A DNA stretch of 64,000 bases from Planctomycetota bacterium. GTDB lineage: Bacteria; Planctomycetota; GCA-002687715; CAIWVZ01. The stretch is taken from assembly GCA_044222185.1 (NCBI GenBank), contig JBGANV010000003.1, positions 736,001-800,000 of the forward strand. Reading direction: 5' to 3'. Positions 9,047 to 45,826 of this stretch are shown here, one piece after another (within the stretch, counting starts at the first letter, position 1; each line of letters begins with the position of its first letter). The notes below the pieces were generated by a model, which saw only the letters and a list, made by a program, of their open reading frames with translations, was not told the origin of the DNA and ran no database searches. A program made the translations under genes and the position numbers.

Positions 9047-9070
9047 GCCCATCCGCAGCTGGCGCGCTCA

Positions 9071-9100
9071 TTGCACGGCCGGCGCGGGTCGGCATACAAT
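9071..9100 (+). promoter_or_regulatory. Putative sigma70 promoter for 9145..12048
   Basis: TTGCAC-N18-TACAAT, upstream of the GAGGAG RBS. Confidence 0.5.
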
Positions 9101-9144
9101 CCCGCGGGCGCAATGACGTCCGGTTGCGCTCGTGAGGAGATCCC

Positions 9145-12048: not shown

Positions 12049-12151
12049 TCGCGCAGCGGCTCGGTGCCGCCAGCCCGCGTATGGCCGGCGACGCCGACGC
12101 AGCGGCCCTCGGCCGCAGCCGAATCGCCGCCGCTCTACCGGTCCGCCCGGA

Positions 12152-13357
12152 TCACGGCTCGAAACGAGCGTCGTAGATCTCGTTGGGAACGAGCTCGGGC
12201 ACGCCGTCGAGCTGGATCGTCGCGAGGCGGCCCCAAGGCGGTGTCGTGAGCACGGCCTTCAACCGCGCGGGCGCGGGCTCGAGGCGCGGAGCGACGGCGA
12301 TGACGGTGCCATGCAGCCGCTCGCCCACGTGGTCGTGCGGGCGCAGTGCGACCTTGACCCCCGTCTTCACGGTCGTGAGCTGGTTGTAGGTGACGTAGGC
12401 GACGACGCGGCCCGGCCGCGACACGACGATCGTCGCGACGGGCACGCCCGTCGCAACCCACTCGCCACCGTGATGCGACACGCTGGCGACGACGCCCGCC
12501 GCGGGCGCCCTCACGACGCACCGCTCTCGCCGCGCTGCAAGCTCGGCGAGCCGTAGGTCGATCACTCGAAGCTCGAGCTCGAGCGGTTCGAGCCGAGAGG
12601 TCACCTCGGGAACCGGAATCGTCGACGGCACCGAATCCAAAGTTGCGTTCGACCGTGCCCGCATCCCCTCGATGGCGACCGTCCGCCGCGCGATCCGCGC
12701 GGCGAGCGCCGCCCGCCTCAGCGAGAGATCGGCCAGGCGGTCCGAGGTGGATGCGCCCGGGGTCGACAGCGCCAGCCGCGAGATCTCGCCTCCGAGCGCC
12801 GCCGCCTCGGCCTCGTCTGCGGCTTGATCGACCTCGTGCCGGTCGAGTTCGCCACGGAGCGCCTCGACGTCGAGGGCGCGCGCGCGCCGGCGTTCCTCCG
12901 CGCCCGCAAGCCGGTCGGCCGATTCGACGCGCCACGCCTCGGCCTGCGCTCGGATCATGGCCCGAACCCGCTCCCCGTCGGCCTTGGTCACGGCGATCTG
13001 GCCGTCGACATCCTGCGTGTCGAGCTGCGCCAGGACGTCCCCCGGCTTCACCGCGAGACCCGTCTCGGCGTCCACGTGGACCAATCGACCTTCGATCGCG
13101 GGCGCGACCTGCAGCTCGACCGTGTCCGCGAACGCGAGCGCGTCCCCGCGAACGCCCTCGACGAGCCAAAGCCTCGCTCCGGCCACGGCGGCAGTCGCCC
13201 AGATCGCAAACGGCGCGACCCGACGAATGCCGGCGATGATGCGGCCGCGCGCCGGAATCGCCGGCGGCGGCTGGACCCGAAACGCCCCCGAATCGGCGAC
13301 CGGCGATCGGACCGGTGCGCCGGTCCCGGCTCCGCCCGCGCTCTTCGTCGCGCTCAT
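12152..13357 (-). CDS. HlyD-family membrane fusion / secretion adaptor protein
   Basis: N-terminal TM; lipoyl half-motifs (VAPAIEGRL...VKPGDVLAQLD; VRAPAAGVV...GEWVATGVPVATI); long coiled coil. Overlaps the upstream gene (ATGA). Confidence 0.85.
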   Translation of the reverse strand: MSATKSAGGAGTGAPVRSPVADSGAFRVQPPPAIPARGRIIAGIRRVAPFAIWATAAVAGARLWLVEGVRGDALAFADTVELQVAPAIEGRLVHVDAETGLAVKPGDVLAQLDTQDVDGQIAVTKADGERVRAMIRAQAEAWRVESADRLAGAEERRRARALDVEALRGELDRHEVDQAADEAEAAALGGEISRLALSTPGASTSDRLADLSLRRAALAARIARRTVAIEGMRARSNATLDSVPSTIPVPEVTSRLEPLELELRVIDLRLAELAARRERCVVRAPAAGVVASVSHHGGEWVATGVPVATIVVSRPGRVVAYVTYNQLTTVKTGVKVALRPHDHVGERLHGTVIAVAPRLEPAPARLKAVLTTPPWGRLATIQLDGVPELVPNEIYDARFEP

Positions 13358-14040
13358 ACCTCCACCGCCTGATCCTGCATGAGGATCGCCACACCGTCCA
13401 CCTTCGGGACGGTGCGCAACGCCGCGACCAGCGCCGCGTTCAACGACGTGTCGCGAAGCCGGACCTGGTAGGCGCGCTCCATCACCCGGCCTTGCGCCAG
13501 CTCGCGCAGGTTCACGAGGATGAAGTTCGAGCAGTACTGCTGGAGCACGGATCGACAGTGCTCATCGACCTCCGGATCGGGCGGCGTCTGGAAGCGCAGC
13601 AGGCCATCGAATGCTCGGCGGGAACCGAAGTCAGAGAAGCTGATCCACAACGAGGCGAGGCAGAAGATGACGGATCCGATCAACGCGACGACGTAGGTCT
13701 GCACGCCGCACGCGATGCCGATCGCGAGACACGCGAAGACGAACGCCATGTCGCGCGTGTCGCGGAGCGTCGCGCGATATCGGACGAGGGCGAGCGTCCC
13801 GAGCAAGCCGAGGCCGCGCGCCACGTTGTTGCCGATGGCGAGCATCAGCATGGTGCTCACGAGCCCCGTCATCACGAGCGAGTGGACGAATCCGCGGGAG
13901 TACGACAGCCCACGGTAGGTCCACGCATAGACGGCGGCGCACATCTGGCAGAACACGAACGAGGCGATCATCGCGAGGACGACCGACTGCCAGGTCATGC
14001 CGGGTTCGTATCGAAGGAAATCGTCGAGGAATGACTGCAT
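13354..14040 (-). CDS. DUF4956-type membrane protein
   Basis: Hydrophobic N-terminal part with IGNNVARGLGLLGTLALVRYR...DTRD and GIACG, then a small soluble C-terminal domain; sits next to a VTC gene, as is usual for this family. Confidence 0.85.
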   Translation of the reverse strand: MQSFLDDFLRYEPGMTWQSVVLAMIASFVFCQMCAAVYAWTYRGLSYSRGFVHSLVMTGLVSTMLMLAIGNNVARGLGLLGTLALVRYRATLRDTRDMAFVFACLAIGIACGVQTYVVALIGSVIFCLASLWISFSDFGSRRAFDGLLRFQTPPDPEVDEHCRSVLQQYCSNFILVNLRELAQGRVMERAYQVRLRDTSLNAALVAALRTVPKVDGVAILMQDQAVEV

Positions 14041-14049
14041 CGTCGTCGG

Positions 14050-14832
14050 TCAGAGGAAGGGGTTGGGACGCCAGAGCGATGGGAGTCCGACGCGAACCCC
14101 ATCCATCAGGTGTCGGATGCACTCGAAGTACTTGGACGCGTTGGTGCGCACGAGCTCGAGCGTGCGCACGAGGTCGAACATCCACACGGGCACGTGGCGC
14201 GTGAACTTCAGCTCGATGAGGACGCCCGCGGGAAACCCGGCGACTTCGAGCCCGGTGTCGAGGTACTGCCAGTTGCCTGGCTCGCCACGGAGGTCGAAGC
14301 CGCAAGCCGGCTGGAACCGAACGCCTCGATCGAAGGTCAGTCGCGCGTAGTCACCGAAGGCGCTCTCGTAGGCTTCGCGCTCATAACGGATCAGCACCTT
14401 CGGCTCGGCACCGTGCCGTACGGCCTTGTGCTGAAAGTCGGCGAGATGGATGGCGTTTTCGCCGCCCGCGTCGGGATCGATCACGCCTCTCACCCGGGCG
14501 TCATATTCGGCGCGCGGACATCGACCGCGAGTCTTGACGACGACGTCTTTCAGCTTGCGCTTGACTTCGAAGAAGATCGGGCCGTCGGCATCGGCCCCGT
14601 AGGTTCGCACGCGCAGCTTGTACCGATCCATCGAACCGGCCGCCTGGCGGTGCCACAACGCGAAATCCGGTGAATCGAGGTAGAGGTTCGTGATCGTGTA
14701 GGCCCCTTCGTCGCGCGTGCCGGCCTCGGCGTCGTGCACCACGTAGGGCGCAATGAAGCGCCGGATTCGATCGACCCGGCTCTCGGGCACGAAGTACTTG
14801 TATTCGAAGCGCTCGAAGCGGACGGATGTCAT
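14050..14832 (-). CDS. VTC-domain (polyphosphate polymerase, CYTH-like) protein
   Basis: RFEYKY (ExK motif), ITNLYLD, KLRVRTY, FFEVKRK, YEREAY, RLTFD, LIELKF, SKY. Confidence 0.9.
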   Translation of the reverse strand: MTSVRFERFEYKYFVPESRVDRIRRFIAPYVVHDAEAGTRDEGAYTITNLYLDSPDFALWHRQAAGSMDRYKLRVRTYGADADGPIFFEVKRKLKDVVVKTRGRCPRAEYDARVRGVIDPDAGGENAIHLADFQHKAVRHGAEPKVLIRYEREAYESAFGDYARLTFDRGVRFQPACGFDLRGEPGNWQYLDTGLEVAGFPAGVLIELKFTRHVPVWMFDLVRTLELVRTNASKYFECIRHLMDGVRVGLPSLWRPNPFL

Positions 14833-15201
14833 GGAAGGGTGGTGGCGACGCGGGCAGTCTCGGACCGGGCCGAAAGGATAGACGAACTCCTCGGCGACTT
14901 CGCGGGATTCTCCCCGCGCAGTACCGCGGTCCTACCCGCATCGCAGGCCCGGTCGCCGCACGCGACGCGCCTTGGCGCGGCCACGGAACCCGAGTCACTC
15001 ACAGGAACAGCGGGGATTCGCGCGAGTTCCGCTTGGTGGTAAGGACGTTGGATCCGCCGCGGGGGAACGTGACGCCGCGCGTCGACGCGCGCCGTTGCGA
15101 GCCAGCCGCCACCGCGCCACCGATTCCGCGGTCGGACTCCCTCGCAGTCTGGGAGCGGCCGTCACCGCAGTCCGCCCGGTGAGGCCCCTCGCACGCGAGC
15201 G

Positions 15202-15229
15202 TTGACGCCCGCGCAGGCCCCACTAAACT
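15202..15229 (+). promoter_or_regulatory. Putative sigma70 promoter
   Basis: TTGACG-N16-TAAACT upstream of 15282. Confidence 0.5.
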
Positions 15230-15281
15230 GTCGCCCTCGAGTTCGCGTCGATGGCGAACTCGCACATGCGTGGAGAGCGAC

Positions 15282-16019
15282 ATGCCAGCGAATGAACAGG
15301 ATGACCGAGGCGCCAACCTCGGCGAGCGACCGGACGGGGCTGCACCCGTCGAGCCGACCGAAGCCATCGAAGGCGAGACGGGTGACCCAGCGGTCCTGAC
15401 GGACGCGCCCGTCGCCACGTGCTGCACCGCGCCAAACCCGAGCACGATCAAACCGTGTGCGCTCTGCCAGGCGCCCGTCTGTTCGCGCTGCCGGACCTAC
15501 GCCAACACGAAGGCCGTCTGTCAGACGTGTGCCGCATCCATCCAGGCCGAACTCGCCGCCGAGAAAGCCGGGGTGCTCCACATGCCAGGTGCGATCCTGG
15601 GCGGATTCATCGCTGCACTCGTCGGTGCCGGCGCCTGGGCGGCGATCACGATCATCACGAACCTGCAGATCGGGTACGTCGCCGTCGGCGTGGGGTTCCT
15701 CGCGGGACTCGGAACGTTCATCGGTGCAGGGAAGAAGAAGGGCGCGCCGCTCCAGGCCGTCGCCGCGGCGTGCGCGGCCCTGGGCCTCATCGTCGGCAAG
15801 TACTTCATCTACGCCCATTTCATCGTCGAGTACGTGAACAAGAAGCAACCGGGCCGGGACCTGTCGATTCTCGACCTGAACTCCATGGTGGTCCTGAAGG
15901 AGTGCGTCCTCACGCTCAAGGAGCCCATGGACCTCCTGTTCCTGGCCCTCGCGTTCGTCGCGGCGATCAAGGTCGTCCGTCCTCAGCGCGTGTCCATGCG
16001 CTCGGTGGGGCGCCGCTGA
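15282..16019 (+). CDS. Membrane protein with N-terminal Cys-rich (B-box-like) zinc finger
   Basis: GGAG RBS; CC...CALC...CSRC...CQTC followed by about four TM helices; stop is 1 nt before the next start. Confidence 0.75.
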   Translation: MPANEQDDRGANLGERPDGAAPVEPTEAIEGETGDPAVLTDAPVATCCTAPNPSTIKPCALCQAPVCSRCRTYANTKAVCQTCAASIQAELAAEKAGVLHMPGAILGGFIAALVGAGAWAAITIITNLQIGYVAVGVGFLAGLGTFIGAGKKKGAPLQAVAAACAALGLIVGKYFIYAHFIVEYVNKKQPGRDLSILDLNSMVVLKECVLTLKEPMDLLFLALAFVAAIKVVRPQRVSMRSVGRR

Positions 16020-16020
16020 G

Positions 16021-17010
16021 ATGGCGATGGACGAGAGCCCGCTCGCACGGCTTCGGCGGCTCGAGGGCGAGAGTACGCTGAACCGCGCCCCACCCCGGCC
16101 CCCGGGCAGCGGCGCACCTGGGCCCGGGCCGAGCCGGAGGAAGGGCGGCGTGCTCGGCGGGATCGGCGCCGTCATCCTCATCGTCCTCGTCAAGAGCAAG
16201 ACCCTGCTCCTGCTGCTGGTGACGAAAGGCAGCGCGATCCTCTCACTGCTCAAGGTGGGGAAGCTCTTCGCCACGCTGGCGACGATGGGCATCTCCATCG
16301 TCTACTACACGGAGCGCTGGGGCGCGAAGTTCGCCGCGGGATTCGTCGGCCTCATCCTCGTCCACGAACTCGGCCACGGTGCCGCCGCCAAGATCGTGGG
16401 ACTGCGCGTCGGGGCGCCGATCTTCATCCCGGGCTTCGGAGCGTTCATCTCGCTCAAGGAGCAGGTGCGTTCCACGTGGCAGAACTTCGTGATCGGGTAC
16501 GGCGGGCCGCTCGCCGGGACCCTGGGCGGCACGCTCGTGCTCGCCGCCGGGATGATGTCCGGCGATGACGAGGTCGTGAGTTTCACGCGCGCGCTCGCCG
16601 AGCTCACGTTCATCATCAACCTGTTCAATCTCCTGCCGGTCTTTCACCTGGACGGCGACCGCATCTCCGAGCCTTTGAAGACGCGCCACTGGATCACGGG
16701 GCTCGCGGCGACGTCCGTGATCGTGCTGCTGCAAGGCGCCCCAGCCGCGGACTCCGAGCGAGGCCATCCGGAGTTCGGGTTCGTCCTCCTCATCCTGATC
16801 CTGGGGGTGGTGAAGGCGATCCTCGTGCATCGCCGCGCCTCACATCCGGCGACGGTCCGGCTCGTCGATCGACTGAACGAGGCGGCTCCGGCACCGCTGC
16901 TGGAGGAAGCGACGGTCAGCGACCAACAGCGGACGATCGCCGCGCTGTCCTACTTCGGGCTCGTCGTACTGCTCTCGGCGCTCGCGCGAGCCGCAGCGCC
17001 GTACGTGTGA
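16021..17010 (+). CDS. Site-2 protease family (M50) intramembrane metalloprotease
   Basis: HELGH, GGPLAG and NLFNLLPVFHLDG motifs. Confidence 0.9.
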   Translation: MAMDESPLARLRRLEGESTLNRAPPRPPGSGAPGPGPSRRKGGVLGGIGAVILIVLVKSKTLLLLLVTKGSAILSLLKVGKLFATLATMGISIVYYTERWGAKFAAGFVGLILVHELGHGAAAKIVGLRVGAPIFIPGFGAFISLKEQVRSTWQNFVIGYGGPLAGTLGGTLVLAAGMMSGDDEVVSFTRALAELTFIINLFNLLPVFHLDGDRISEPLKTRHWITGLAATSVIVLLQGAPAADSERGHPEFGFVLLILILGVVKAILVHRRASHPATVRLVDRLNEAAPAPLLEEATVSDQQRTIAALSYFGLVVLLSALARAAAPYV

Positions 17011-33916: not shown

Positions 33917-35587
33917 ATGTGCCGAAGCTGGCTGCCATGGTTGTTCGTTTGCGCGGCCGTCGCGCGCGCCCAGGTGTCGGCCTACGTTCCCGACAACGCG
34001 CCGGCGCTCGGTGTCTGCAATTCGATCCCGTTCGGAGTGACCTCGCAGATCACCTACCTGGCGCGGATCCCCGCATCGAGCCTGGGGGGAGTTGCCGGAC
34101 GCCACCTCCTCGACGTTGCGTTCGCGCCCTGCGGGACCGGAACTTGGTCATCCGCGTCAGTCATCGTCGGTGTGGGCCACGTTCCCACGCCCCAGCCCTG
34201 TCCGTTCACGTTCCCGTCGTCTGGGGGAACGTCGATCGGCAGCTTTGCGGACTTCACAGTCGTGTGGGATTCGTCCGTGCGAGGGCCGCTGACCTGGAAC
34301 GCCGTCCAGGACACCTGGTCGCCGCTCGGGCTCGGAGGCACCGGCTTTCTGTGGGACGGGGTCCGAGACATCGGCTTCTTCCTCACGTCACAGGCGCCAA
34401 CCTTCGGCGCAGGCTTCTCCGGAGCGTGCCACAAGACGACGTCGGAGCCCGCGCGGACGCACAGCGCATCGTTCTGGGCGCCCGCGAGCACGCTCACGAG
34501 CTGCACCGTCGCCGCGGGCCTGAAGATGCGCCTGGACTTCGTGCCCCTCCAGGCCCAGTGGCAGGTGAACGGTCCCGGGGCGAGCCTCGACATCGACGGC
34601 GTCTCCTCCTCGCCCTACGTACAGATGGAGGTGACCTCCTGCACCAACCAGCCGCACGTCGCGAACCTCGTGAGCTCGACGACCGTGGGCAACGTGTGGA
34701 ACGTCGTGCTGACGACGGGGCCCGGCGTGCCGTTGTTCGGTGGCGGAATCCCCACCGCCGGGGGGCAGATCGTGAACGTCGATTTCGCAGACCCGTCACT
34801 CATCCTGCTGTTTCCGCCGGGAACGCCGAACGCCTTCGCCGTCGGGGCAGTCCCCCTTTCGTTCCCTCAGGCCTTCGACACGTCGGCCCAGATGTTCGTC
34901 ATGGACGCGGCCGCTGCCGACGGCTTCGACCTCTCGGCCCTCACCCGACTGCACGTCGCGACGAACGTCCAATCCCTTCCGGGGCCGACCGGCGAAGACA
35001 CCTACGTCACCGTCGGACTGGGCACGCCGCAGCTCTGCGGCAGCTCGCCCGTCAGCTTCTACGGTTCGACGTACACCCTGATGCACGTCAGCGCCAATGG
35101 ACGCGTCATGTTCGGCGCGCCGAACACGGACTACCTCCCGAGCCCGGCGCTCGCCGTGACGGAATCGAGCTGGGCCGGGCTTTGGTGCGATCTGAGCCCC
35201 ACAGCGGGCGGGGCGATCTCCATCTCGACTACACCGGCGGGCGCCGTCCGGGTGGACTACGTCGGCGTCCCATACTTCGGCGAGCCGGCGAACCCCGTGA
35301 CGTTCGCCATCGAGATCGACCCGATACTCGCCACGGTCACGATCGACGGGCTTTGGGGGGTCCCGCTGAGTTCGACCGGCCTGTTCGCCATGCTGGGCGT
35401 GTCGCCCGGCTTCCCGTTGGCGACTGATCCGGGGGCGATCAACCTCGTGCCTGGCGGACCGAGCCCGGGGCCGGCCGGCGGCGCGATGCTCTATGCACTG
35501 GGGGTACCGGGCCTCTTCACCTCAGGTCTGGCGAGCGTGGTGTTTGTCCCGAACGCCATTGGGAACTACGATTTCACCGTCTTCTGA
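33917..35587 (+). CDS. Secreted modular protein of unknown function (C-terminal nidogen/NIDO-like segment)
   Basis: Signal peptide; FYGSTY...VSANGRVMFG...AGLWCDL resembles NIDO-like adhesin modules. Confidence 0.7.
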   Translation: MCRSWLPWLFVCAAVARAQVSAYVPDNAPALGVCNSIPFGVTSQITYLARIPASSLGGVAGRHLLDVAFAPCGTGTWSSASVIVGVGHVPTPQPCPFTFPSSGGTSIGSFADFTVVWDSSVRGPLTWNAVQDTWSPLGLGGTGFLWDGVRDIGFFLTSQAPTFGAGFSGACHKTTSEPARTHSASFWAPASTLTSCTVAAGLKMRLDFVPLQAQWQVNGPGASLDIDGVSSSPYVQMEVTSCTNQPHVANLVSSTTVGNVWNVVLTTGPGVPLFGGGIPTAGGQIVNVDFADPSLILLFPPGTPNAFAVGAVPLSFPQAFDTSAQMFVMDAAAADGFDLSALTRLHVATNVQSLPGPTGEDTYVTVGLGTPQLCGSSPVSFYGSTYTLMHVSANGRVMFGAPNTDYLPSPALAVTESSWAGLWCDLSPTAGGAISISTTPAGAVRVDYVGVPYFGEPANPVTFAIEIDPILATVTIDGLWGVPLSSTGLFAMLGVSPGFPLATDPGAINLVPGGPSPGPAGGAMLYALGVPGLFTSGLASVVFVPNAIGNYDFTVF

Positions 35588-35666
35588 CCCTCGTCTGGCC
35601 GTCCGACGTCGAACGGATTCAGACACGGGGCCGGGCGATTCGATAAGCGCCCCGTAGGATGCATCG

Positions 35667-36080
35667 GTGATTCGCCAAAGCAGAGCCATCTTGCTTGCCC
35701 TGATCCTCCCGGCACTCGTGCTGCCGGACGGTGGGCTGTTCTGCCTCTGCCGCGCGTCGCTGACGCGAGCGTTCACGTCGTGCTGCCGCACCCTCGAGGC
35801 GAGGATCCCGGAGTGCTGCCGCAAGGTGTCGAAGACGCGCGACGCCTCACCACTGGCGACCGCGGCATGCAAGGGCTGCCTGAAGCTCTCGACGGGAATC
35901 AGCCAGTCGACGCACGCGGAAACGCGGGGATTCGACCTCGCGAAAGTGATGGCGCTGCCGGTGCACGCGCAGACCGAGTCGAGCACGCAGGCCTCCGCGT
36001 GGCGACTGCTGACTCCGCCGCTGCTGGATTCCGGCGGCAGGCCTCCAGGGCCCGAACGAACGCCGCCCTTGCAGATCTGA
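35667..36080 (+). CDS. Small exported Cys-rich protein with Pro-rich C-terminus (DUF2946/CutF/CruR-like uORF)
   Basis: GTG start after AGGA; hydrophobic N-terminus; CLC, CC, CC and CKGC; ends GGRPPGPERTPPLQI; first gene of the exporter operon. Confidence 0.7.
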   Translation: MIRQSRAILLALILPALVLPDGGLFCLCRASLTRAFTSCCRTLEARIPECCRKVSKTRDASPLATAACKGCLKLSTGISQSTHAETRGFDLAKVMALPVHAQTESSTQASAWRLLTPPLLDSGGRPPGPERTPPLQI

Positions 36081-36152
36081 GATCGACTCCATCGCCGTCG
36101 TGGACGCATTGCGTCCGGACTGATCGTTCGCGGGCTCACCGATGGAGCCGTC
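36081..36152 (+). promoter_or_regulatory. Stem-loop that sequesters the Shine-Dalgarno of the TolC gene
   Basis: CTCCATCG (36087-36094) is the exact reverse complement of CGATGGAG (36140-36147), which contains the GGAG RBS. Inner palindrome GGACGCA-T-TGCGTCC at 36102-36116. Confidence 0.65.
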
Positions 36153-37565
36153 ATGGATTTCCGCCGTCTGGTCCGAGTTCTCGGGCCGGTTTCCCTGCTG
36201 TCGCTTTCCGCGTGTTCCGCTCCGGATCCCGCGCCGCTCGATGACCGCGCGCTCGTCGCGGCCGTAACCGAGCGTGCGGCCACGCCGACCGATCTCAGGA
36301 ACGCCCTGGAGATCGCCGGAACGACGTCGCTCGCGCTGCCGAGGCCCGATGCCCCGACGGCCGTCGATCGCGACGACCCCGTGTTCTGGACGGCCTGCGC
36401 CTACGCTTACGACCCTGCGACGCGCCAGGCGCGTCGTCGGCTGCAGGCGGCGATCGCGTCGGCGCGATCGGCCGGTGCTCCGGGTGCGGTCGGCGTCGAC
36501 GCCGAGCACGCGCAGAACGCGGGCGAGCGTGATACGGAGGTCGCCCTGACGTTCGACCTCCTCGGCCTTCTGGGTCTCGGCCGGTCGGCCGCCGAGGAGA
36601 ACCTGGCGAACGCCGAGGTACGCAACGCGCTTGGTGTCCTCGAAGACGCCGTCTGGCGCGCGCGCTTCAACGTCGCACGCGCGCGCCTCCGCCTTGGAGC
36701 CGCGCGTGCGCGCGTCGCTGCGTTCGAAGAACTGCTCGCGGATGCAGCGGGCGAGCGTGAGCGGATCGAGATTCTCCAGCGCAACGGACGCCTCGCGCTC
36801 GCAGACACGCAATGGGCGCGGGCCGTACTCCACCACGCTGAAGGCCTGGTCTTTCAGGCACACGCGTCCGCGGCCGACGCGCAGGCGGAGCTGGCCAAGG
36901 CTTCCGGCCTCGCCTCCGAGCACCCGGCGATCGCCGCGGTTTCGGCGCGAGCCCTCCCCTCGAACTTCGACGTCGACGCACTCGATCAGGTCCCCACGCG
37001 GGAACGCCTCCTGGCAAGCCTGCCGAGGCTGCGCATGCGCCGTCTCGAATACGCGGTCACGGAGGCGATGCTCCGACGCGAGGCCGCCGAGACGTGGCCC
37101 CAGCTGCGGATCGGGCCGAAACTGATGTTGCAGCCAGACATGACGCTCCCCGGCGGAGTCGTCGGGCTCGAACTGCCGTGGCCCGGCAGCGCCCAGGGGC
37201 GAATCGCCGCAGCCGTCGAGACGAGGTCCGCCGCGCGCGAGGCGCTCGAAGACGAGTTCCTCGCCGCCACAGCAGACGTCACGCAGGCCCGCCAACGGTT
37301 CGTCGCTCGCGTCGACGACGTCGAACACCACCTCGCGCTCGCGGATGCCACGTCGATCGCTCTTCGCGCCGGCCGCGCACGCTTCCGCGCCGACGCCGCC
37401 ATGCTGGAAAGCTGGGTCATGGCGATCGACCGTCGCATCGACGCGCAGATGAAGGTGCTCGAGTCGGAGGAAGCCGCAGCGCTCGCCCGGATCGACTTCG
37501 ACGAGGCGGTCGGGCCGAAAAACCAACCCGAAACGCGCGCGACAGACACGGAGTCACGCCCATGA
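36153..37565 (+). CDS. TolC-family outer membrane efflux lipoprotein
   Basis: Lipobox LSAC; two helical repeats with OEP-like motifs (WPQLRIGP, GLELPW); operon context. Confidence 0.85.
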   Translation: MDFRRLVRVLGPVSLLSLSACSAPDPAPLDDRALVAAVTERAATPTDLRNALEIAGTTSLALPRPDAPTAVDRDDPVFWTACAYAYDPATRQARRRLQAAIASARSAGAPGAVGVDAEHAQNAGERDTEVALTFDLLGLLGLGRSAAEENLANAEVRNALGVLEDAVWRARFNVARARLRLGAARARVAAFEELLADAAGERERIEILQRNGRLALADTQWARAVLHHAEGLVFQAHASAADAQAELAKASGLASEHPAIAAVSARALPSNFDVDALDQVPTRERLLASLPRLRMRRLEYAVTEAMLRREAAETWPQLRIGPKLMLQPDMTLPGGVVGLELPWPGSAQGRIAAAVETRSAAREALEDEFLAATADVTQARQRFVARVDDVEHHLALADATSIALRAGRARFRADAAMLESWVMAIDRRIDAQMKVLESEEAAALARIDFDEAVGPKNQPETRATDTESRP

Positions 37566-39085
37566 GCAACGTCCGACCCGACATCGATCTCGGCGCGCTC
37601 TCACGGACGCCGACGGCCGTCGCACCGCCGCCCCGCCGCTGGCTGCGGATCGTCGTTCCGATCCTCATCCTCGGGACGTTCGCGGCGATCCTCTTCACGA
37701 GCCTCGGCGACGTGTTCCGAAGCGCCGTGGAGGTGACCGTCATCCGGCCACGCCCCGCGGCCTCGTCCGGCGGCGCGTCCGCCTCGAGCGTCGCGTTCCA
37801 GGCGGCGGGATGGGTCGAGCCCAACCCGTACCCGACGCTCGTGACGGCGCTGACGTCGGGCGTCATCAGCGAGGTCCTCGTCCTCGAGTCGGACGCGGTC
37901 AAGGCCGGCGACCCCGTGGCGAAACTCGTCGATGCCGACGCGCGCCTCGCGCTCGAGGGGGCCGAGGCCGCACTCGCGCGTGCTTCCGCGGAACGAGCGA
38001 AGGCGGCAGTCGAGCTGACCAACGCCGACGAATCGTTCCGCGCCGCACTCGACGTGACGGAAGCCGACGCGACGGCGAAGGCGGACCTGGACGGCAAGAA
38101 GTCCGAGAGCGTCTTTCGCGCGGCCGCAGTCGTCCAAGGCGAGGCCCAGTTCCGGATCGCGCAAGAAGAGCTCGCCGTCCAACAGGAGCTGGTGCGCGCC
38201 TCCGCAGCGGGACCACGCGCCGTGGAGATCGCCGTCGCCAAGGTCGACGAAGCCCGGGGCAACCTGGAGGCGCTGCGGGGCAGCGCCGCCGCGGCGAGTG
38301 CAGAAGTGAAGAAGGCCGAAGCCCGCCTCGCGCGAACGAGTGCGGACCGACAACTCCGTCTTTCCGACCGGCTGCGCCTGGAGTCGGCGAAGACAGGTGC
38401 GGCACTGGCGGAGGCGGCAGTGCGCGAGGCCACGGTCGCGCGTGACGTCGCCGCGCTGCGGCTCGAACGAACGGTCGTCCGAGCGCCGGCGGCGGGGATC
38501 GTCCTCGAGCGGCTCGTCGCACCGGGCACCCCCGTCGGAGCTACCGACGGCGGCGGTGCGCCCGTGTGCTCGCTCTTCGATCCACGCTCGGTGCGAGTCC
38601 GCGTCGACGTGCCCCTGTCCGAGATCGGCAAGGTGCGGCCGGGACAGAGGGCAGAGATCGCAAGCGAGGCGCGCGCGGGCCGACCCTATTCGGGCGATGT
38701 GATCCGCATCGTCCAGAAGGCGGACATCCAGAAAGTGACGCTGCAGGTCCAGGTGAGGATCGACGACAGCGACGCCCTCCTGCGGCCCGAGATGCTCTGC
38801 CAGGTGCGATTCCTGGCCGACGCCGCATCGAGCCAGGCGTCGCGAGGCGCGGACGCACCGGTCGACCGCGTGCTCGTTCCCGAGAAGCTCGTGCTCGGAG
38901 GGAACGCCGTCTGGGTCGTCGACCCGATCGGACACTCGGCGCGACGTCGAACCATCGAAGTGGGAGGCCGCAACGGCGAGTGGGTCGAAGTCAGATCCGG
39001 CCTGAATCTTACGGACAAGCTGATCGACGAGGGTCGCAACCAGGTCAGCGAAGGCGCGCGCATCCGCGTGCGCGGAGGCGAGTGA
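37562..39085 (+). CDS. Efflux periplasmic adaptor (membrane fusion protein)
   Basis: TM near the N-terminus; AAGWVEP...SGVISEVLVLE.D.VKAGDPVAKL; long coiled coil; VRAPAAGIV; LRPEM. The ATG overlaps the TolC stop. Confidence 0.92.
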   Translation: MSNVRPDIDLGALSRTPTAVAPPPRRWLRIVVPILILGTFAAILFTSLGDVFRSAVEVTVIRPRPAASSGGASASSVAFQAAGWVEPNPYPTLVTALTSGVISEVLVLESDAVKAGDPVAKLVDADARLALEGAEAALARASAERAKAAVELTNADESFRAALDVTEADATAKADLDGKKSESVFRAAAVVQGEAQFRIAQEELAVQQELVRASAAGPRAVEIAVAKVDEARGNLEALRGSAAAASAEVKKAEARLARTSADRQLRLSDRLRLESAKTGAALAEAAVREATVARDVAALRLERTVVRAPAAGIVLERLVAPGTPVGATDGGGAPVCSLFDPRSVRVRVDVPLSEIGKVRPGQRAEIASEARAGRPYSGDVIRIVQKADIQKVTLQVQVRIDDSDALLRPEMLCQVRFLADAASSQASRGADAPVDRVLVPEKLVLGGNAVWVVDPIGHSARRRTIEVGGRNGEWVEVRSGLNLTDKLIDEGRNQVSEGARIRVRGGE

Positions 39086-39086
39086 C

Positions 39087-39778
<692 letters not shown>

Positions 39779-39782
<4 letters not shown>

Positions 39783-40918
39783 AGCTGTTCAAGCTGATCC
39801 GGCGGAACCTGGGCCGACGGCCACTGCGGACGTTGCTCACCGTGCTCGGCGTCGCGAGCGCCATGCTCCTCCTCGTGCTCGTCGAGAGCCTGAGCCGAGG
39901 GCTGGATCACGCACTCTCCGGCACGGAGGCCGCGCGAACGCTCATCGTCTACCGCCAGAACCGGTACTGCCCGCAGACGTCGTTCCTTCCGGAGCGCTAC
40001 GCGGCGCAGATCCGCAGGGTGCCGGGCGTGGTGAGCGTGCTGCCCGTGAAGGTCTTCCTGAACAACTGCCGCGCAAGCCTCGACCTCGTGGCGTTCCAGG
40101 GCGCGCCGGTCGACGATCTCTTCACGGCGCGGAAGATCGACGTCATCCGCGGCGACGTTGCGAAGTTCCGAGACGAGCGCGATGCGGCGCTCGTCGGTCG
40201 CGCGTTCGCCGAACGAAAGAACCTGGACGTCGGCGACAAGTTCCGGTTCGGCAACATCAACGTGAAGGTGGCGGGCGTGTTCGGCTCGGCCGAGCCGATC
40301 GAAGAAGGCGTGATCCTGACCCACCTCGAGTTCCTCCAGCGCGCCGGGCCCGTGAACAAACTGGGGACCGTGACGGAGTTCGAGGTCAAAGTGAGCGACG
40401 CGTCGCAGGCGCGGGAGATCAGCCGCGCCATCGACGCCCTGTTCCGCTCGGAGGAAGCCCCGACGGATACGCGCGCGAAGGTACTCTTCCTCGAGAACGC
40501 GACGCGCGACATGCGGGAGATCCTCCGATTCGCGCGACTTCTCGGCATCGCATGCGTGCTGGTCGTGCTCGCCCTCGTCGGCAACACGGTCGTGATGTCG
40601 GTGCAAGAGCGGGTGAAGGAGTTCGGCGTGATGCGGACGTTGGGATTCGGCGAACGAAGCATCGCGTTCGTCGTTCTCGGCGAAGCGGTCCTTCTTGCGA
40701 CCTTCGGCGGCTGCGTCGGACTGGGCGCGGCTCTCGCTGTCATCCACTTCTCGCACCTCTCGATCGGCGCCGAGGGCGTGGCCGTGGCGTTCTCCACGTC
40801 GCCCGAGCTCATCATGACGGGAGTGGGCATCGCCCTCTCGACCGGCGCGCTTGCCGGCCTCATCCCGGCGATCCGCTCGTCCCGTCTCGAAATCGTCGCG
40901 TCGCTCCGGAGTGCATGA
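39779..40918 (+). CDS. ABC transporter permease (FtsX/MacB type) 1
   Basis: RNLGRRPLRTLLT; large periplasmic loop; SVQERVKEFGVMRTLGF; LIPAIRSSR. Confidence 0.93.
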
Positions 40919-42102
40919 CCATGGGCCGCAGACTTCCGTTCGACTACGCGGTCCGCAATCTCGGTCGCCGGCCGCTACGCACCGTTCTTACGGGGACGTC
41001 GAGTGCCCTCGTCGCCGCGCTGCTCGTTGCGACCACCGCGTTCGTTCGAGGGCTCGAGGACACGTTCGCCGGCGCCGCACAGGCGGACACGGCCATCGTT
41101 CTGTCGAAGGTCTCCGAACGCGACGTCGTGAGGTCGACGGTCACGGCGGGCTTGCCCGAACTCGTAGCGGCCTCCGTCACGGGCGTGAAGGTCGTCGACG
41201 GAACGGCACTCGTCTCCGGCGAGATCCACATGGCGACGAACCTGCACCTCGGTCCGGCGGCGCCGCCGTCCGAGCGCGATGCCACCTACCAGGCATTCGT
41301 GCGCGGGATCACGTCGCGCGCGTTCTTGGTTCACGATGCCGTGAACATCACCGAGGGCCGCGCTCCGCGCAGCGGCGAGGTGCTGGTGGGCCGGCTCGTG
41401 GCGCAACAGCTCGGCGTGCCGGATGCGGCGCTCGCCGTCGGGCAGAAGCTGCGGTTCGAGGGCGCGACGTTCACCATCGCCGGACGCTTCGTCGCGCCCG
41501 GAACGACCATCGAGGCGGAGATCTGGACGGACCTGTCCGAGCTCCGCGGCCTGACGCGTCGCGACGACAGCTCGGCCGTGTTCGTCCGCATGGAGAAGCC
41601 CGGGGATTTCGCCGAGCTCGACCTCTTCTGCCAGCGGCGACTCGATCTCGAGATCGCCATGATGCCGACGGCGCTCTACTACCGAGAGCTCTCCGACTAC
41701 TTCGTGCCCATCCGGCGTCTCGCGTGGGCCATGGCCGCGATGATCGTCGGCGCGGCATTGTTCGGCGGGGCGAACACTCTCAACGCCGCCGTGCAGGATC
41801 GCGTGAAGGAACTGGCCACGCTTCGGGCCGTCGGCTACTCGGGACTCGCTCTCGTGCGCTCGCTCGGCCAGGAATCGATCGTCCTGGCGGCCGGTGGCGG
41901 CGTCCTCGGGCTCTTGCTCGCCCGGCTGTTCCTCGCCGGCAGCGCCGTCCGGATCGCCATGAGCGCCTTCGCGTTGAAGGTCGATGCCGTGGCGATCCTC
42001 GTTGGATTCGGCGGCGTGCTCGTCCTCGGACTTCTCGGCTCCGTACCCGCGGCGGCCCGCGTCATGCGGCTGCCGATTGCCTCGGCCCTCAAGGAAACGT
42101 AA
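40915..42102 (+). CDS. ABC transporter permease (FtsX/MacB type) 2
   Basis: RNLGRRPLRTVLT; AVQDRVKELATLRAVGY; PAAARVMRLPI. Start at 40915 or 40921. Confidence 0.93.
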   Translation: MTMGRRLPFDYAVRNLGRRPLRTVLTGTSSALVAALLVATTAFVRGLEDTFAGAAQADTAIVLSKVSERDVVRSTVTAGLPELVAASVTGVKVVDGTALVSGEIHMATNLHLGPAAPPSERDATYQAFVRGITSRAFLVHDAVNITEGRAPRSGEVLVGRLVAQQLGVPDAALAVGQKLRFEGATFTIAGRFVAPGTTIEAEIWTDLSELRGLTRRDDSSAVFVRMEKPGDFAELDLFCQRRLDLEIAMMPTALYYRELSDYFVPIRRLAWAMAAMIVGAALFGGANTLNAAVQDRVKELATLRAVGYSGLALVRSLGQESIVLAAGGGVLGLLLARLFLAGSAVRIAMSAFALKVDAVAILVGFGGVLVLGLLGSVPAAARVMRLPIASALKET

Positions 42103-42127: not shown

Positions 42128-42649
42128 ATGCGCTCGTCGTTGACCCTGGTTGCTGCCGTGTGTGCGCTCGCGTTCGTCGCTGGTTGCGGCGAGAAGTCGA
42201 AGGCGTCTGGCGCGAGCGAGGCCGCCCCGCCGAAATCCGACGTGCCCGAGAAGTTCTGGGCGGCGCAGGCCCCGGCGTCGCCCAAGAGCGTCGCCGTCGT
42301 GAAGAAGGAGTCGAAGAACGGCGACGAGGTCTCCGTCGTCGGTCGCGTCGGCGGCGCCGAGAAGGTGTTCGTCGACGGCATCGCGGCATTCACGATCGTG
42401 GACGAGGCCGCCGTCGCGTGCACCAAGGATCACTGCGAAACGCCGTGGGACTACTGCTGCGTCGATGCCAAGGAACTCACGGCGCAAACCATCACGGTCG
42501 AGTTCGTGGATGGTGACAAGCCGGTGAAGACCGGGGCCCGCGGCTTCCACGGGCTCGATTACCTCTCGACGATCGTCGTCACCGGCAAGGTCTCACGTGA
42601 CGATGCCGGCAACGTGACGGTGAGGGCCACGGCGCTCCACGTCAACTGA
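42128..42649 (+). CDS. Lipoprotein with a Cys/His cluster (C-x3-HC-x2-PWDYCC), probably OB-fold
   Basis: AGGAGAG RBS; lipobox VAGC; GDEVSVVGRVGG and TIVVTGKV strands; last gene of the exporter operon. Confidence 0.8.
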   Translation: MRSSLTLVAAVCALAFVAGCGEKSKASGASEAAPPKSDVPEKFWAAQAPASPKSVAVVKKESKNGDEVSVVGRVGGAEKVFVDGIAAFTIVDEAAVACTKDHCETPWDYCCVDAKELTAQTITVEFVDGDKPVKTGARGFHGLDYLSTIVVTGKVSRDDAGNVTVRATALHVN

Positions 42650-44062: not shown

Positions 44063-45826
44063 ATGAATTTGATTGCATCCACGTCCGCTCGCGCGGCTGC
44101 GTTCGCCATCGCCGTTGCGTGCGCCGTCGCCGCACACGCACAGACCTACGACTACACGCTCACCGCCATGCCCACGACGGTCACCGTGCAGCCGGGTTCG
44201 ACCGTCACCACGTGGACCTTCAACGGCAGCATGCCCGGCCCCGTCATCCGAGGCACCGCGGGTCAGCCGCTGCGGATCCGTTACGTGAACCAGACGACCG
44301 ACCCGTCGATCGTCCACTTCCACGGCCTCGAGGTTCCCGTCGGCATGGACGGCGTGATCGGCCTGTCCAGGCCCGCCGTCGCCCCGGGCGAGGAGTTCAT
44401 CTACGAGATCACTCCACCCGATGCGGGCACGTACTGGTATCACCCGCACGTCGAGGACCAGATGGACCTGGGCCTGTACGGCGTCATGATCGTCGATCCG
44501 GCGAACCCCGCCGACGATCCTCCCTTCAACCAGGAGCAGACGATCATCCTCGACGACTCCATCAACCTGGGGCTCGGGGTGAGCAAGCCGGGTCTGGGGA
44601 CGTTCAGCGGGTACTTCATCAATGGCAAGACGAGCACGGGCCAGACTCCGATCGCCGTGCAGAACGGCCAGACGCTCCGGTTGCGAATCCTGAACGCGTC
44701 CTCGCGGTCGAGTTACGTCGTCGCCCTCGACGGGCATCCGCTCCTCGTGACGCACGCAGATGGTCACCGGATCACGCCGATCTCGTTCGACGCGCTTCCC
44801 ATCGGACCCGGGGAGCGGTGGGACGCCTACGTCACCCTCAACAACCCTGGAACGTGGAGCCTCGCCGTCGCGCCGCTGGCCAATCGCAACACCGTGCTCG
44901 TGAGGACGGCCATCCAATACGCCGGGCAGTCCGGTGCGATGCCGTCAGCAAGCTACGTTCCGCCGAACCTCTCGACGGGCACGATCCTCACCTACGCTGC
45001 GCTCTCGTCCCTGAACCCGGTCACACCGATCAGCGCAACTCCCCAGCACACGTTCCCGGCCGCACTCGGCATGATGATGGTCGGCTCGACGATGATGTTC
45101 ACGATCAACGGGCAGGTGTTTCCCAACGTCACCCCGATGGTGGTTTCAGCGGGCGACATCTCCCAGATCGACTTCGTGAACACGATGTCGTCGATGGGCG
45201 CGTCGGTGGCCCACCCGATGCACATGCACGGTCACACGTTCCGCATGATGGGAACGGCGGGTGGCACGACGAATCCACCCCTCAAGGACACGGTGCTCGT
45301 GCGATCCATCAACCAGTCGCCGAACGCCGTTTCCGTCCAGTTCACGGCGAACAACCCGGGTCGGTGGCTCATGCACTGCCACGACTCGCTCCACATGATG
45401 ATGGGGATGGTCACCCTGCTCGACTACACGGGCGACGCGGATGGCGACACCATCCCCAACCCCGTCGACATGGACCCGCTCAGCGCCTACCCGACACTCA
45501 CGGTTCCGGACGTGGCCTCGGCGTTCCAGATCGGTGGCAGCGGCGCCATCTCGGTCACGTGGGTGCCGTGGAGCAACGTCGACTTCTTCATCGGCGATGA
45601 GCTGGCGACGCCGGTGAGCTTCGGCAACTACGGCCTGCTGCGCATCTGGCCGCTCGCCTACGTCACGTCCGCGTCGACGGGCGGGAGCGGGGTGGCGAAC
45701 GTGCCGTACGTGCTGCCGAACGATCCGCTCCTCGTGGGCGCGCGCGTGGGACTCCAGGCCGCGGCGACGACGTCGCTCGCGCCGGGGTATCGCGCCTCCA
45801 CCTGGCAGCCGTTCACGATCCGGTAG
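44063..45826 (+). CDS. Multicopper oxidase (three-domain laccase/CueO-like) with a C-terminal extension
   Basis: All four Cu motifs present: HFHG, YWYHPH, HPMHMHGH and HCHDSLHMMMGM. Sec-type signal peptide; TACAAT -10 box at 44000. Confidence 0.93.
   Translation: MNLIASTSARAAAFAIAVACAVAAHAQTYDYTLTAMPTTVTVQPGSTVTTWTFNGSMPGPVIRGTAGQPLRIRYVNQTTDPSIVHFHGLEVPVGMDGVIGLSRPAVAPGEEFIYEITPPDAGTYWYHPHVEDQMDLGLYGVMIVDPANPADDPPFNQEQTIILDDSINLGLGVSKPGLGTFSGYFINGKTSTGQTPIAVQNGQTLRLRILNASSRSSYVVALDGHPLLVTHADGHRITPISFDALPIGPGERWDAYVTLNNPGTWSLAVAPLANRNTVLVRTAIQYAGQSGAMPSASYVPPNLSTGTILTYAALSSLNPVTPISATPQHTFPAALGMMMVGSTMMFTINGQVFPNVTPMVVSAGDISQIDFVNTMSSMGASVAHPMHMHGHTFRMMGTAGGTTNPPLKDTVLVRSINQSPNAVSVQFTANNPGRWLMHCHDSLHMMMGMVTLLDYTGDADGDTIPNPVDMDPLSAYPTLTVPDVASAFQIGGSGAISVTWVPWSNVDFFIGDELATPVSFGNYGLLRIWPLAYVTSASTGGSGVANVPYVLPNDPLLVGARVGLQAAATTSLAPGYRASTWQPFTIR

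Follow-up and report, generated by a model that had tools for sequence, protein, structure and literature searches.

An unannotated Cys-rich leader gene ahead of an ABC-type pump operon in Planctomycetota, most likely a divergent variant of the CutF/CruR metal-sensing leaders

To characterize a candidate regulatory leader in the Planctomycetota, we analysed a 64,000-nucleotide stretch of one genome of this phylum (assembly GCA_044222185.1, contig JBGANV010000003.1, positions 736,001 to 800,000; hereafter the window, with coordinates counted from its first letter). The subject of this work is a short open reading frame (ORF) at 35667-36080, directly ahead of the genes of a tripartite pump of the ATP-binding cassette (ABC) type. 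This ORF is a real, conserved gene. Judged from its sequence and those of its relatives, it most likely encodes a divergent, unannotated planctomycete variant of the CutF/CruR metal-sensing leaders, joined here to an ABC-type tripartite pump, and we consider it rather probable that its product, small and exported, regulates the pump operon mainly in cis, in the way of the CutF/CruR leaders. A preliminary description of the locus had proposed a metal-sensing leader of this type. The conservation pattern, the intergenic helix and the copper-related loci described below appear to support an element of this kind, but the details of the proposed motif and a membership in DUF2946 did not hold.

CutF and CruR belong to the exported DUF2946 proteins and carry a CxxxC or CxxC motif as well as a Pro-rich motif at the C-terminus (PMC8456105; PMC9973294; bioRxiv 10.1101/2025.02.05.636593; PMC9426467). 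In CutF, encoded in the cutFOG operon of Rhodobacter capsulatus, binding of periplasmic copper leads to a stall at GPPPRL-stop, and the stall melts a stem-loop covering the cutO Shine-Dalgarno (SD) sequence (PMC8456105; PMC9973294; bioRxiv 10.1101/2025.02.05.636593). In CruR (Bp2923) of Bordetella pertussis, the ribosome stalls at RAPP with three residues still to come; copper lifts this stall, whereupon Rho terminates transcription (PMC9426467). A further report demonstrates arrest at RAPP in vitro (PMC12992588).

The leader gene and its parts are as follows.

35656-35659, plus strand: Shine-Dalgarno-like AGGA of the leader ORF, 7 nt 5' of its GTG, from inspection of the sequence.
35667-36080, plus strand: leader ORF of 137 aa, starting at GTG and ending in TGA (36078-36080), from translation, coding GC and homologs.
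35667-35735, plus strand: putative N-terminal export signal or anchor, residues 1-23 (R3, R6, then AILLALILPALVLP), by eye and from family conservation.
35742-35879, plus strand: Cys cluster C26xC28, C39C40, C50C51 and C68xxC71, a putative metal sensor, from conservation of the Cys residues.
35880-36041, plus strand: linker of poorly conserved sequence and conserved length, from the 18-member alignment.
36042-36047, plus strand: Pro126-Pro127 (PPG), a possible EF-P-dependent pause site, from the recurrence of PP in the family.
36057-36080, plus strand: conserved tail R131-T-P-P134-L-Q-I137 with the TGA, from tail counts in 18 members.

The window has a GC content of ~0.69 and contains many long spurious ORFs. 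The GC content of the leader ORF at codon positions 1, 2 and 3 is 0.61, 0.59 and 0.84, with neighbouring genes at 0.81-0.86 in the third position (GC3), and GC3 falls to 0.62 across the final ~80 nt of the leader. We regard the ORF as a real gene because this codon-position pattern matches that of its real neighbours and because its homologs are conserved; a protein on record (P0007) shares its start codon. The N-terminus consists of two Arg followed by a 14-residue hydrophobic stretch, and AlphaFold2 placed a helix over residues 2-18; the export signal was otherwise judged by eye. The eight Cys are arranged as C26-L-C28, C39C40, C50C51 and C68-K-G-C71, the protein ends in RPPGPERTPPLQI-stop, and PP dipeptides stand at residues 126-127 and 133-134. 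The 137-aa ORF of the preliminary description, with its eight Cys (CLC, CC, CC, CKGC), its tail and the two helix arms discussed below, was found in the sequence and in the fold just as reported. No Pfam (E <= 0.1) or NCBIfam family matched the protein. Public runs from several other studies have contigs with nearly the same DNA, 1 letter in 888 nt being changed.

Next, we turned to relatives of the leader protein. An exhaustive HMMER search of 1.8 billion representatives returned 3 relatives only, while profile searches of whole genomes, 401 of them sampled from the phylum, gave matches at E <= 0.001 in 12, this genome counted, and one additional paralog in this genome was spotted by eye. The family alignment comprises 18 members including the window's protein. 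Every member with a known source belongs to Planctomycetota, one of them being assigned by a named record to a 'Planctomycetes bacterium' assembly. All eight Cys are invariant in the 5 closest sequences, and the column of C71 holds Cys in 17 of the 18 members. The frequency of the top residue is 0.56 in the signal, 0.38 in the Cys region, 0.31 in the linker and 0.59 in the last 13 residues. The distance from the C71 column to the C-terminus is nearly constant: in 17 of 18 members it measures 65.2 +/- 2.1 residues (range 60-69). The span of the Cys cluster is more variable (43.6 +/- 7.2 residues, range 34-59).

The extreme C-terminus follows the consensus PP at ~-12, then R(-7)-x-x-P(-4)-L/I(-3)-x-I/L/V(-1)-stop. 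All 18 members have Leu or Ile at -3 and Ile, Leu or Val as the last residue; P at -4 and a PP within the final 15 residues are each present in 15, the latter mostly at -12/-13 from the end, and R at -7 in 13. The preliminary description had suggested examining orthologous operons for a conserved Cys plus R-x-P-P element. The Cys cluster and a conserved tail are indeed there across the 18 members, but RTPP and RPPGP as such are not: the Pro that would correspond to position 3 of RAPP occurs in 2 of 18 members only (the window's protein and P0008), the other 16 having L, V, T, G or S. The Leu codons of the tail differ among loci (CTG, TTG, CTC and CTT), and since they are synonymous but variable, selection acts on the peptide and not on the RNA. 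Conservation of the signal, the Cys residues, the length of the linker and the extreme C-terminus is the look of a nascent-chain regulator acting in cis.

The region between the leader and the gene for the outer-membrane efflux protein (OEP) is 72 nt long and contains the following elements.

36087-36094, plus strand: 5' (anti-SD) arm CTCCATCG, beginning 6 nt past the leader stop, from the sequence and the minimum free-energy (MFE) fold.
36140-36147, plus strand: 3' arm CGATGGAG, which holds the SD of the efflux-protein gene (GGAG, 36144-36147), from the sequence and the MFE fold.
36102-36116, plus strand: inner hairpin (6 bp, 3-nt loop) lacking a U tract, from the sequence and the fold.

CGATGGAG is the perfect complement of CTCCATCG, and its GGAG lies 5 nt before the ATG at 36153. 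In the MFE fold the two arms are paired and the helix reaches outward to about 36070/36163, so that the start codon of the OEP gene is covered as well. Folding therefore bore out the pairing of the post-stop arm with the SD arm that had been proposed earlier, with a stability no better than that of shuffled sequences. Within the loop, the reported 7-bp palindrome is a 7-nt inverted repeat, but because its halves are only 1 nt apart it can form no more than 6 bp around a 3-nt loop. A promoter and terminator scan came up empty at the locus, without any terminator-like site, and Rfam gave no match for the intergenic RNA. In DNA contigs from public runs the helix shows zero variation, and they therefore yield no population covariation. 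Since the helix at this locus is unexceptional when compared with shuffles (numbers are given below), the case for it rests on the homologous loci.

We compared the 12 of 18 members for which DNA and a nameable downstream start codon were available. In 8 of these 12 loci, the window included, the MFE fold pairs the SD region of the downstream gene with a segment starting 0-6 nt past the stop. The sequences of the arms vary by locus (CTCCATCG/CGATGGAG, GGGTCTCC/GGAGACCC, CTCCGT/ACGGAG, CCCTCT/AGAGGG and GAGCTCCACG/CGTGGAGCTC). The mean duplex energy of arms from the same locus is -20.7 kcal/mol, versus -15.8 kcal/mol for 132 cross-locus pairs (Mann-Whitney p 5e-4), and the shuffle tests of the individual loci combine to a Fisher p of 0.0025. 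Furthermore, 7 of the 12 loci attain a pairing score that is met by 7.7% of 233 control junctions, which were called crudely (binomial about 1e-5). A stem-loop shielding the SD in the manner of CutF is predicted, then, in the window and 7 further loci of the 12. The covarying stem that the preliminary description proposed to look for recurs in the form of different arms at these eight loci, and at the other four the predicted fold does not join the SD to the post-stop segment. At one locus (L015 2023-2913, plus strand, genome G221), where the helix contains 10 perfect base pairs, the leader heads a protein in which a region weakly matching YHS is fused to a membrane domain of the DUF2231 family.

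A sister branch of the leader family heads a different kind of operon. There the leader precedes a secreted protein of ~230 aa in which the motifs C-P-(I/V)-x-G and CC are repeated and for which Pfam gives no match, and a multicopper oxidase is nearby in 4 other genomes and on contig C3 of this genome. Both additional paralogs of this genome lie on C3 (L029, C3:10000-28000) in a single metal island at about 8100-16100 on the minus strand, the leaders themselves occupying 8937-9374 and 14258-14647 of L029 (minus strand). The order in the island is leader, Cys-protein, OEP, multicopper oxidase, Haem_bd protein, leader, Cys-protein, and a cation-efflux protein adjoins it. The ~230-aa Cys-rich proteins of the island, with their CP(I/V)xG repeats, have a His-rich end. 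No exporter is present in the sister branch. These sister-branch loci are the best evidence that the family senses metal, probably copper.

Downstream of the leader in the window is a conserved operon.

36153-37565, plus strand: outer-membrane efflux protein (OEP/TolC-like lipoprotein), 470 aa, from Pfam PF02321 (E 1.5e-10) and its conserved position after the leader.
37562-39085, plus strand: periplasmic adaptor (HlyD/MFP), 507 aa, from Pfam HlyD_3 and HlyD_D23, NCBIfam TIGR01730 and synteny.
39087-39782, plus strand: ABC ATPase of the MacB/LolD/DevA type, from Pfam ABC_tran and NCBIfam matches that are all under their equivalog cut-offs.
39779-40918, plus strand: FtsX/MacB_PCD permease 1, from Pfam and synteny.
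40921-42102, plus strand: FtsX/MacB_PCD permease 2, from Pfam and synteny.
42128-42649, plus strand: conserved lipoprotein with C...C-x-x-P-W-D-Y-C-C, the last gene of the operon, from tblastn synteny and alignment.

The start of the adaptor gene overlaps the OEP stop codon. An ATPase, MacB_PCD and FtsX permeases, an HlyD-type adaptor and an OEP together make up a tripartite ABC exporter of the MacB/FtsX type; MacB of E. coli is fused, whereas here the ATPase and the two permeases are separate genes. By tblastn, the gene order after the leader is identical in 3 other genomes, and the first genes are also found in a fourth. The terminal lipoprotein, which has 4 conserved Cys and is the last operon gene in those 3 genomes too, gave no match in Pfam or NCBIfam; it may partner the pump in a metal- or redox-related role. 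About 2 kb past the operon, at about 44063-45826 (plus strand), the window encodes a three-domain multicopper oxidase with Met-rich stretches, and no CutF-like ORF stands in front of it. In line with the preliminary description, which saw no transcriptional metal regulator adjacent, none was detected in a Pfam scan of 17 ORFs at about 23.7-52.5 kb, a scan that was not exhaustive. Directly 5' of the leader is a 556-aa ORF (33917-35587, plus strand) with a signal-like N-terminal start and no significant Pfam match; its 5' end overlaps a 701-aa FG-GAP repeat ORF on the opposite strand.

The gene with its pattern of conservation, the helix that recurs at related loci, the conserved operon and the sister loci linked to copper are what we observed; from these we infer export, arrest and metal binding, together with a probable metal and a sign of the response, as parts of the following mechanism. 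The signal sequence would bring the nascent chain to the Sec translocon. With the ribosome on the last codons, the Cys cluster would lie ~65 residues behind the peptidyl-transferase centre, roughly the length of the ribosomal tunnel plus the Sec channel, and would be placed just outside the membrane, while the tail PP-x4-R-x-x-P-L-x-I-stop would fill the ribosomal tunnel. The segment 6 nt past the stop would pair with the SD of the OEP gene, the outer helix would also cover its AUG, and only a ribosome at the leader's stop codon or on its final codons would unwind the anti-SD arm. How long that ribosome dwells would be set by the tail and by the state of the Cys cluster (metal, most likely copper, versus disulfide formation), and the dwell time would decide how frequently the operon for OEP, adaptor, ABC ATPase, permeases and lipoprotein is translated.

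A ribosome covers about 12-15 nt downstream of the P-site codon. If P134 occupied the A site, the ribosome would extend as far as the stop codon and melt the outer helix only; at the stop codon itself, its footprint would take in about 10 nt more and disrupt the anti-SD arm. A pause on the very last codons or at termination would agree with both the conserved L-x-I-stop end and the location of the arms, 0-6 nt past the stop. Metal may lengthen the pause, as for CutF, which would induce the pump, or shorten it, as for CruR; the more economical guess is that metal would induce an exporter. Each step of the mechanism has a precedent in the published work on CutF (PMC9973294; bioRxiv 10.1101/2025.02.05.636593) and CruR (PMC9426467).

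We then asked how the leader compares with known systems. Ozturk et al. (2023) listed 5,334 CutF-like proteins, and the main text gives as rules a length of <150 aa, a PP in the last 15 residues, an N-terminal signal and a same-strand downstream gene at <1000 nt (PMC9973294). The leader agrees with these rules, having 137 aa, a PP, a 72-nt intergenic region and a signal seen by eye and as an AlphaFold2 helix. It also has the Cys motif of CutF-like proteins, as C68-x-x-C71 with three further Cys pairs (putatively metal-binding). Leader and CutF have in common their small size (<150 aa), export, a Cys motif and a Pro-rich tail that lies at the C-terminus near the stop, and each stands first in its operon, with a short intergenic stem-loop shielding the next SD and a copper-related neighbourhood. 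However, CutF has CxxxC plus two Cys where the leader has eight Cys and no PF11162 match, and the CutF tail is GPPPRL-stop while that of the leader family is PP-x4-RxxPLxI-stop. The distance from sensor to tail is about 60 residues here and about 43 in CutF (C73 to P116, numbering of the paper). The target of CutF is a multicopper oxidase, and that of the leader is an OEP-adaptor-ABC pump in a planctomycete host.

With CruR, the leader shares the register of the RAPP motif, R-x-x-P followed by three residues and the stop. CruR differs in having a strict RAPP with a 45-residue spacing, compared with RTPP (family consensus R-S/T/N-L/V-P) and ~65 residues to the C-terminus here; in its 162-nt cruR-bfrG intergenic region with a Rho-dependent read-out, compared with 72 nt and an anti-SD helix; and in its target, a TonB-dependent importer instead of an exporter. 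CzcI of Cupriavidus metallidurans, compared by description only, is likewise a small exported metal-related protein heading a tripartite efflux operon with the outer-membrane factor first, but the czc pump is of the resistance-nodulation-division (RND) type instead of ABC, and CzcI has no C-terminal proline motif according to the main text of PMC9973294. SecM, MifM, VemP, ApdA and ApdP are exported chains whose C-terminal arrest opens a hairpin sequestering an SD, with, as in the leader, an Arg three residues before an A-site Pro; these proteins monitor the secretion machinery, however, and not a ligand.

The preliminary description, which knew of no such leader in front of a MacB-type exporter, had overstated the novelty. 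Outer-membrane efflux genes (of RND pumps) are already the most frequent downstream neighbours of CutF-like proteins in the main text of Ozturk et al., which names CzcI-czcCBA (PMC9973294). The words ABC, TolC and Planctomycet are absent from that main text, and our literature search turned up no ABC-linked or planctomycete case of a CutF-like protein. What differs from CutF and CruR is only the ABC pump (MacB/FtsX-type), the phylum and the tail; the logic itself is published. Roy et al. mention 'a few' DUF2946 genes in Planctomycetes, and we found canonical DUF2946 genes over the Pfam cut-off in 16 of the 401 sampled genomes (L030-L049). Their products are His-rich, with one CxxC and with RAPP or RGPP two to six residues before the stop, and the Cys-rich leader family is in none of these 16 genomes. 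A feature search of a protein atlas retrieved a cluster with 23% DUF2946 members at a score of 0.93, ranked behind clusters without a named family.

Several observations weigh against the leader being a regulator of the CutF/CruR kind. The PF11162 (DUF2946) model did not match any of 7 members at E <= 10, and a six-frame search of this genome with it gave nothing at the window, the best hit elsewhere reaching 14.3 bits, below the cut-off. Comparison of the 18-member family with 13 planctomycete DUF2946 proteins by hhalign gave a weak result, a probability of 45% over 23 columns around the CxxC. The core of RAPP-type arrest peptides (PMC12992588) is R-(A/G)-P-P or R-A-G-P, with an irreplaceable Arg and with Pro (or Gly) at position 3. 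Mutagenesis of ApdA and ApdP reported there shows that Thr at position 2 and any residue except Gly at position 3 are not arrest-permissive, and that at position 2 Gly is fully permissive, Ser, Asp and Pro partially so, and Val and Glu so in ApdP (PMC12992588). Measured by this core as described, the window has R-T-P-P and most members have Leu or Val at the third position, so that most of the family departs from the rules for position 3 (Pro or Gly) and position 2 (Ala, Gly or small); the tail, on this analysis, is not a proven arrest motif. By the geometry given above, the footprint of a ribosome paused at PP126/127 would stop near 36060, short of the helix. AlphaFold2 gave a low-confidence model (pLDDT, the per-residue confidence score, of 54 from an 18-row alignment, with nothing confident past the N-terminal helix), which fits a disordered leader, though as weak support that proves nothing. 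One 239-nt contig from a metatranscriptome library exactly matches 35603-35841, from 64 nt 5' of the leader start codon, but it could be DNA, is no proof of transcription and ends before the junction. The link between the pump and metal is by neighbours alone, an association only. We therefore file the leader, from its features, as most likely working like CutF, and do not count it as a shown member of DUF2946 or of the RAPP class.

The helix has its own difficulties. Compared with dinucleotide shuffles, the intergenic fold has a z of +1.04, and 169 of 200 shuffles fold at least equally well. When the SD segment was held fixed and the remainder shuffled, the 8.5-nt pairing of the SD with the post-stop segment compared with 3.75 +/- 3.5, and 14 of 100 shuffles reached 8.5, as did 4.7% of the 233 same-strand junctions that were crudely called in this genome. 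At its own locus, the window's helix is not beyond chance. In the wider set, the predicted folds of L010, L011, L013 and L014 lack pairing between SD and post-stop segment, the helix of L012 is weak in the ensemble test, and the helix statistics overstate independence because the loci are kin, one genus and this genome contributing three each; the control junctions, moreover, derive from a crude gene caller. Along with the spurious ORFs so common in the window, such figures would fit a chance ORF with a chance hairpin in GC-rich DNA, but the comparative data refute this explanation, leaving it next to no probability: GC3 is 0.84, homologs have invariant Cys and a conserved tail, and the helix recurs at related loci.

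A more substantial alternative is that the leader is an ordinary small metal-binding protein, periplasmic or membrane-anchored (a chaperone or pump accessory in a role like that of CzcI or CusF), merely coupled in translation through the helix next to the stop, the nascent chain neither causing arrest nor sensing anything. The eight conserved Cys and the export signal would suit such a protein, the geometry of the helix needs merely a ribosome arriving at the stop, the tail is of no established arrest type, and a hydrophobic L-x-I end could be a tag for a protease or PDZ domain. A folded binder does not, however, predict an unconserved linker of fixed length (65 +/- 2) together with a conserved C-terminus; no confident fold was obtained, and in front of two unrelated kinds of operon, a regulator would be expected more readily than a dedicated pump subunit. 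On balance we think this explanation unlikely, if worth serious attention. Transcriptional attenuation in the manner of CruR, in which a ribosome held by the tail blocks Rho loading and metal binding releases it, with termination before the pump genes, would agree with the R-x-x-P-xxx-stop register shared with CruR and with the lack of an intrinsic terminator in the scan, which means that any termination would be factor-dependent. Against this, the intergenic region is short (72 nt versus 162 nt in cruR-bfrG) and is filled by a helix aimed at the SD, which is the CutF design, and we hold attenuation to be quite improbable. The Cys-rich leader next to a tripartite ABC exporter could also suggest a secreted peptide substrate of that exporter (a ribosomally synthesized and post-translationally modified peptide), but the leader has its own Sec-type signal, Pfam and NCBIfam reveal no modification enzymes in the operon, and the sister branch does entirely without an exporter; we rejected this possibility as extremely improbable.

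Going beyond a regulatory leader of the CutF/CruR kind, the family might form a distinct class of arrest peptide. It would pause 0-3 codons before the stop, with its conserved positions spread along the tunnel as in TnaC, so that the ribosome is parked over the anti-SD arm; a 65-residue ruler would set the eight-Cys cluster outside the Sec channel, and periplasmic copper or Cys redox would set the dwell. It would also provide the first link between a MacB/FtsX pump (with its Cys-lipoprotein) and copper. We regard this extended version as speculative and unlikely.

Metal-sensing leaders that report extracytoplasmic metal through the ribosome were described between 2021 and 2025 from two proteobacterial prototypes. 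The leader family would extend this design to Planctomycetota, in a form overlooked by the Pfam model, and would show a tail that breaks the RAPP rule together with a longer ruler from sensor to tail; the family lends itself naturally to testing which features of the tail arrest requires. It would couple one design to two outputs, an ABC efflux pump and a unit of Cys-protein and multicopper oxidase. For the conserved seven-gene operon of an ABC pump of unknown substrate, it would offer a first functional hint, namely metal stress.

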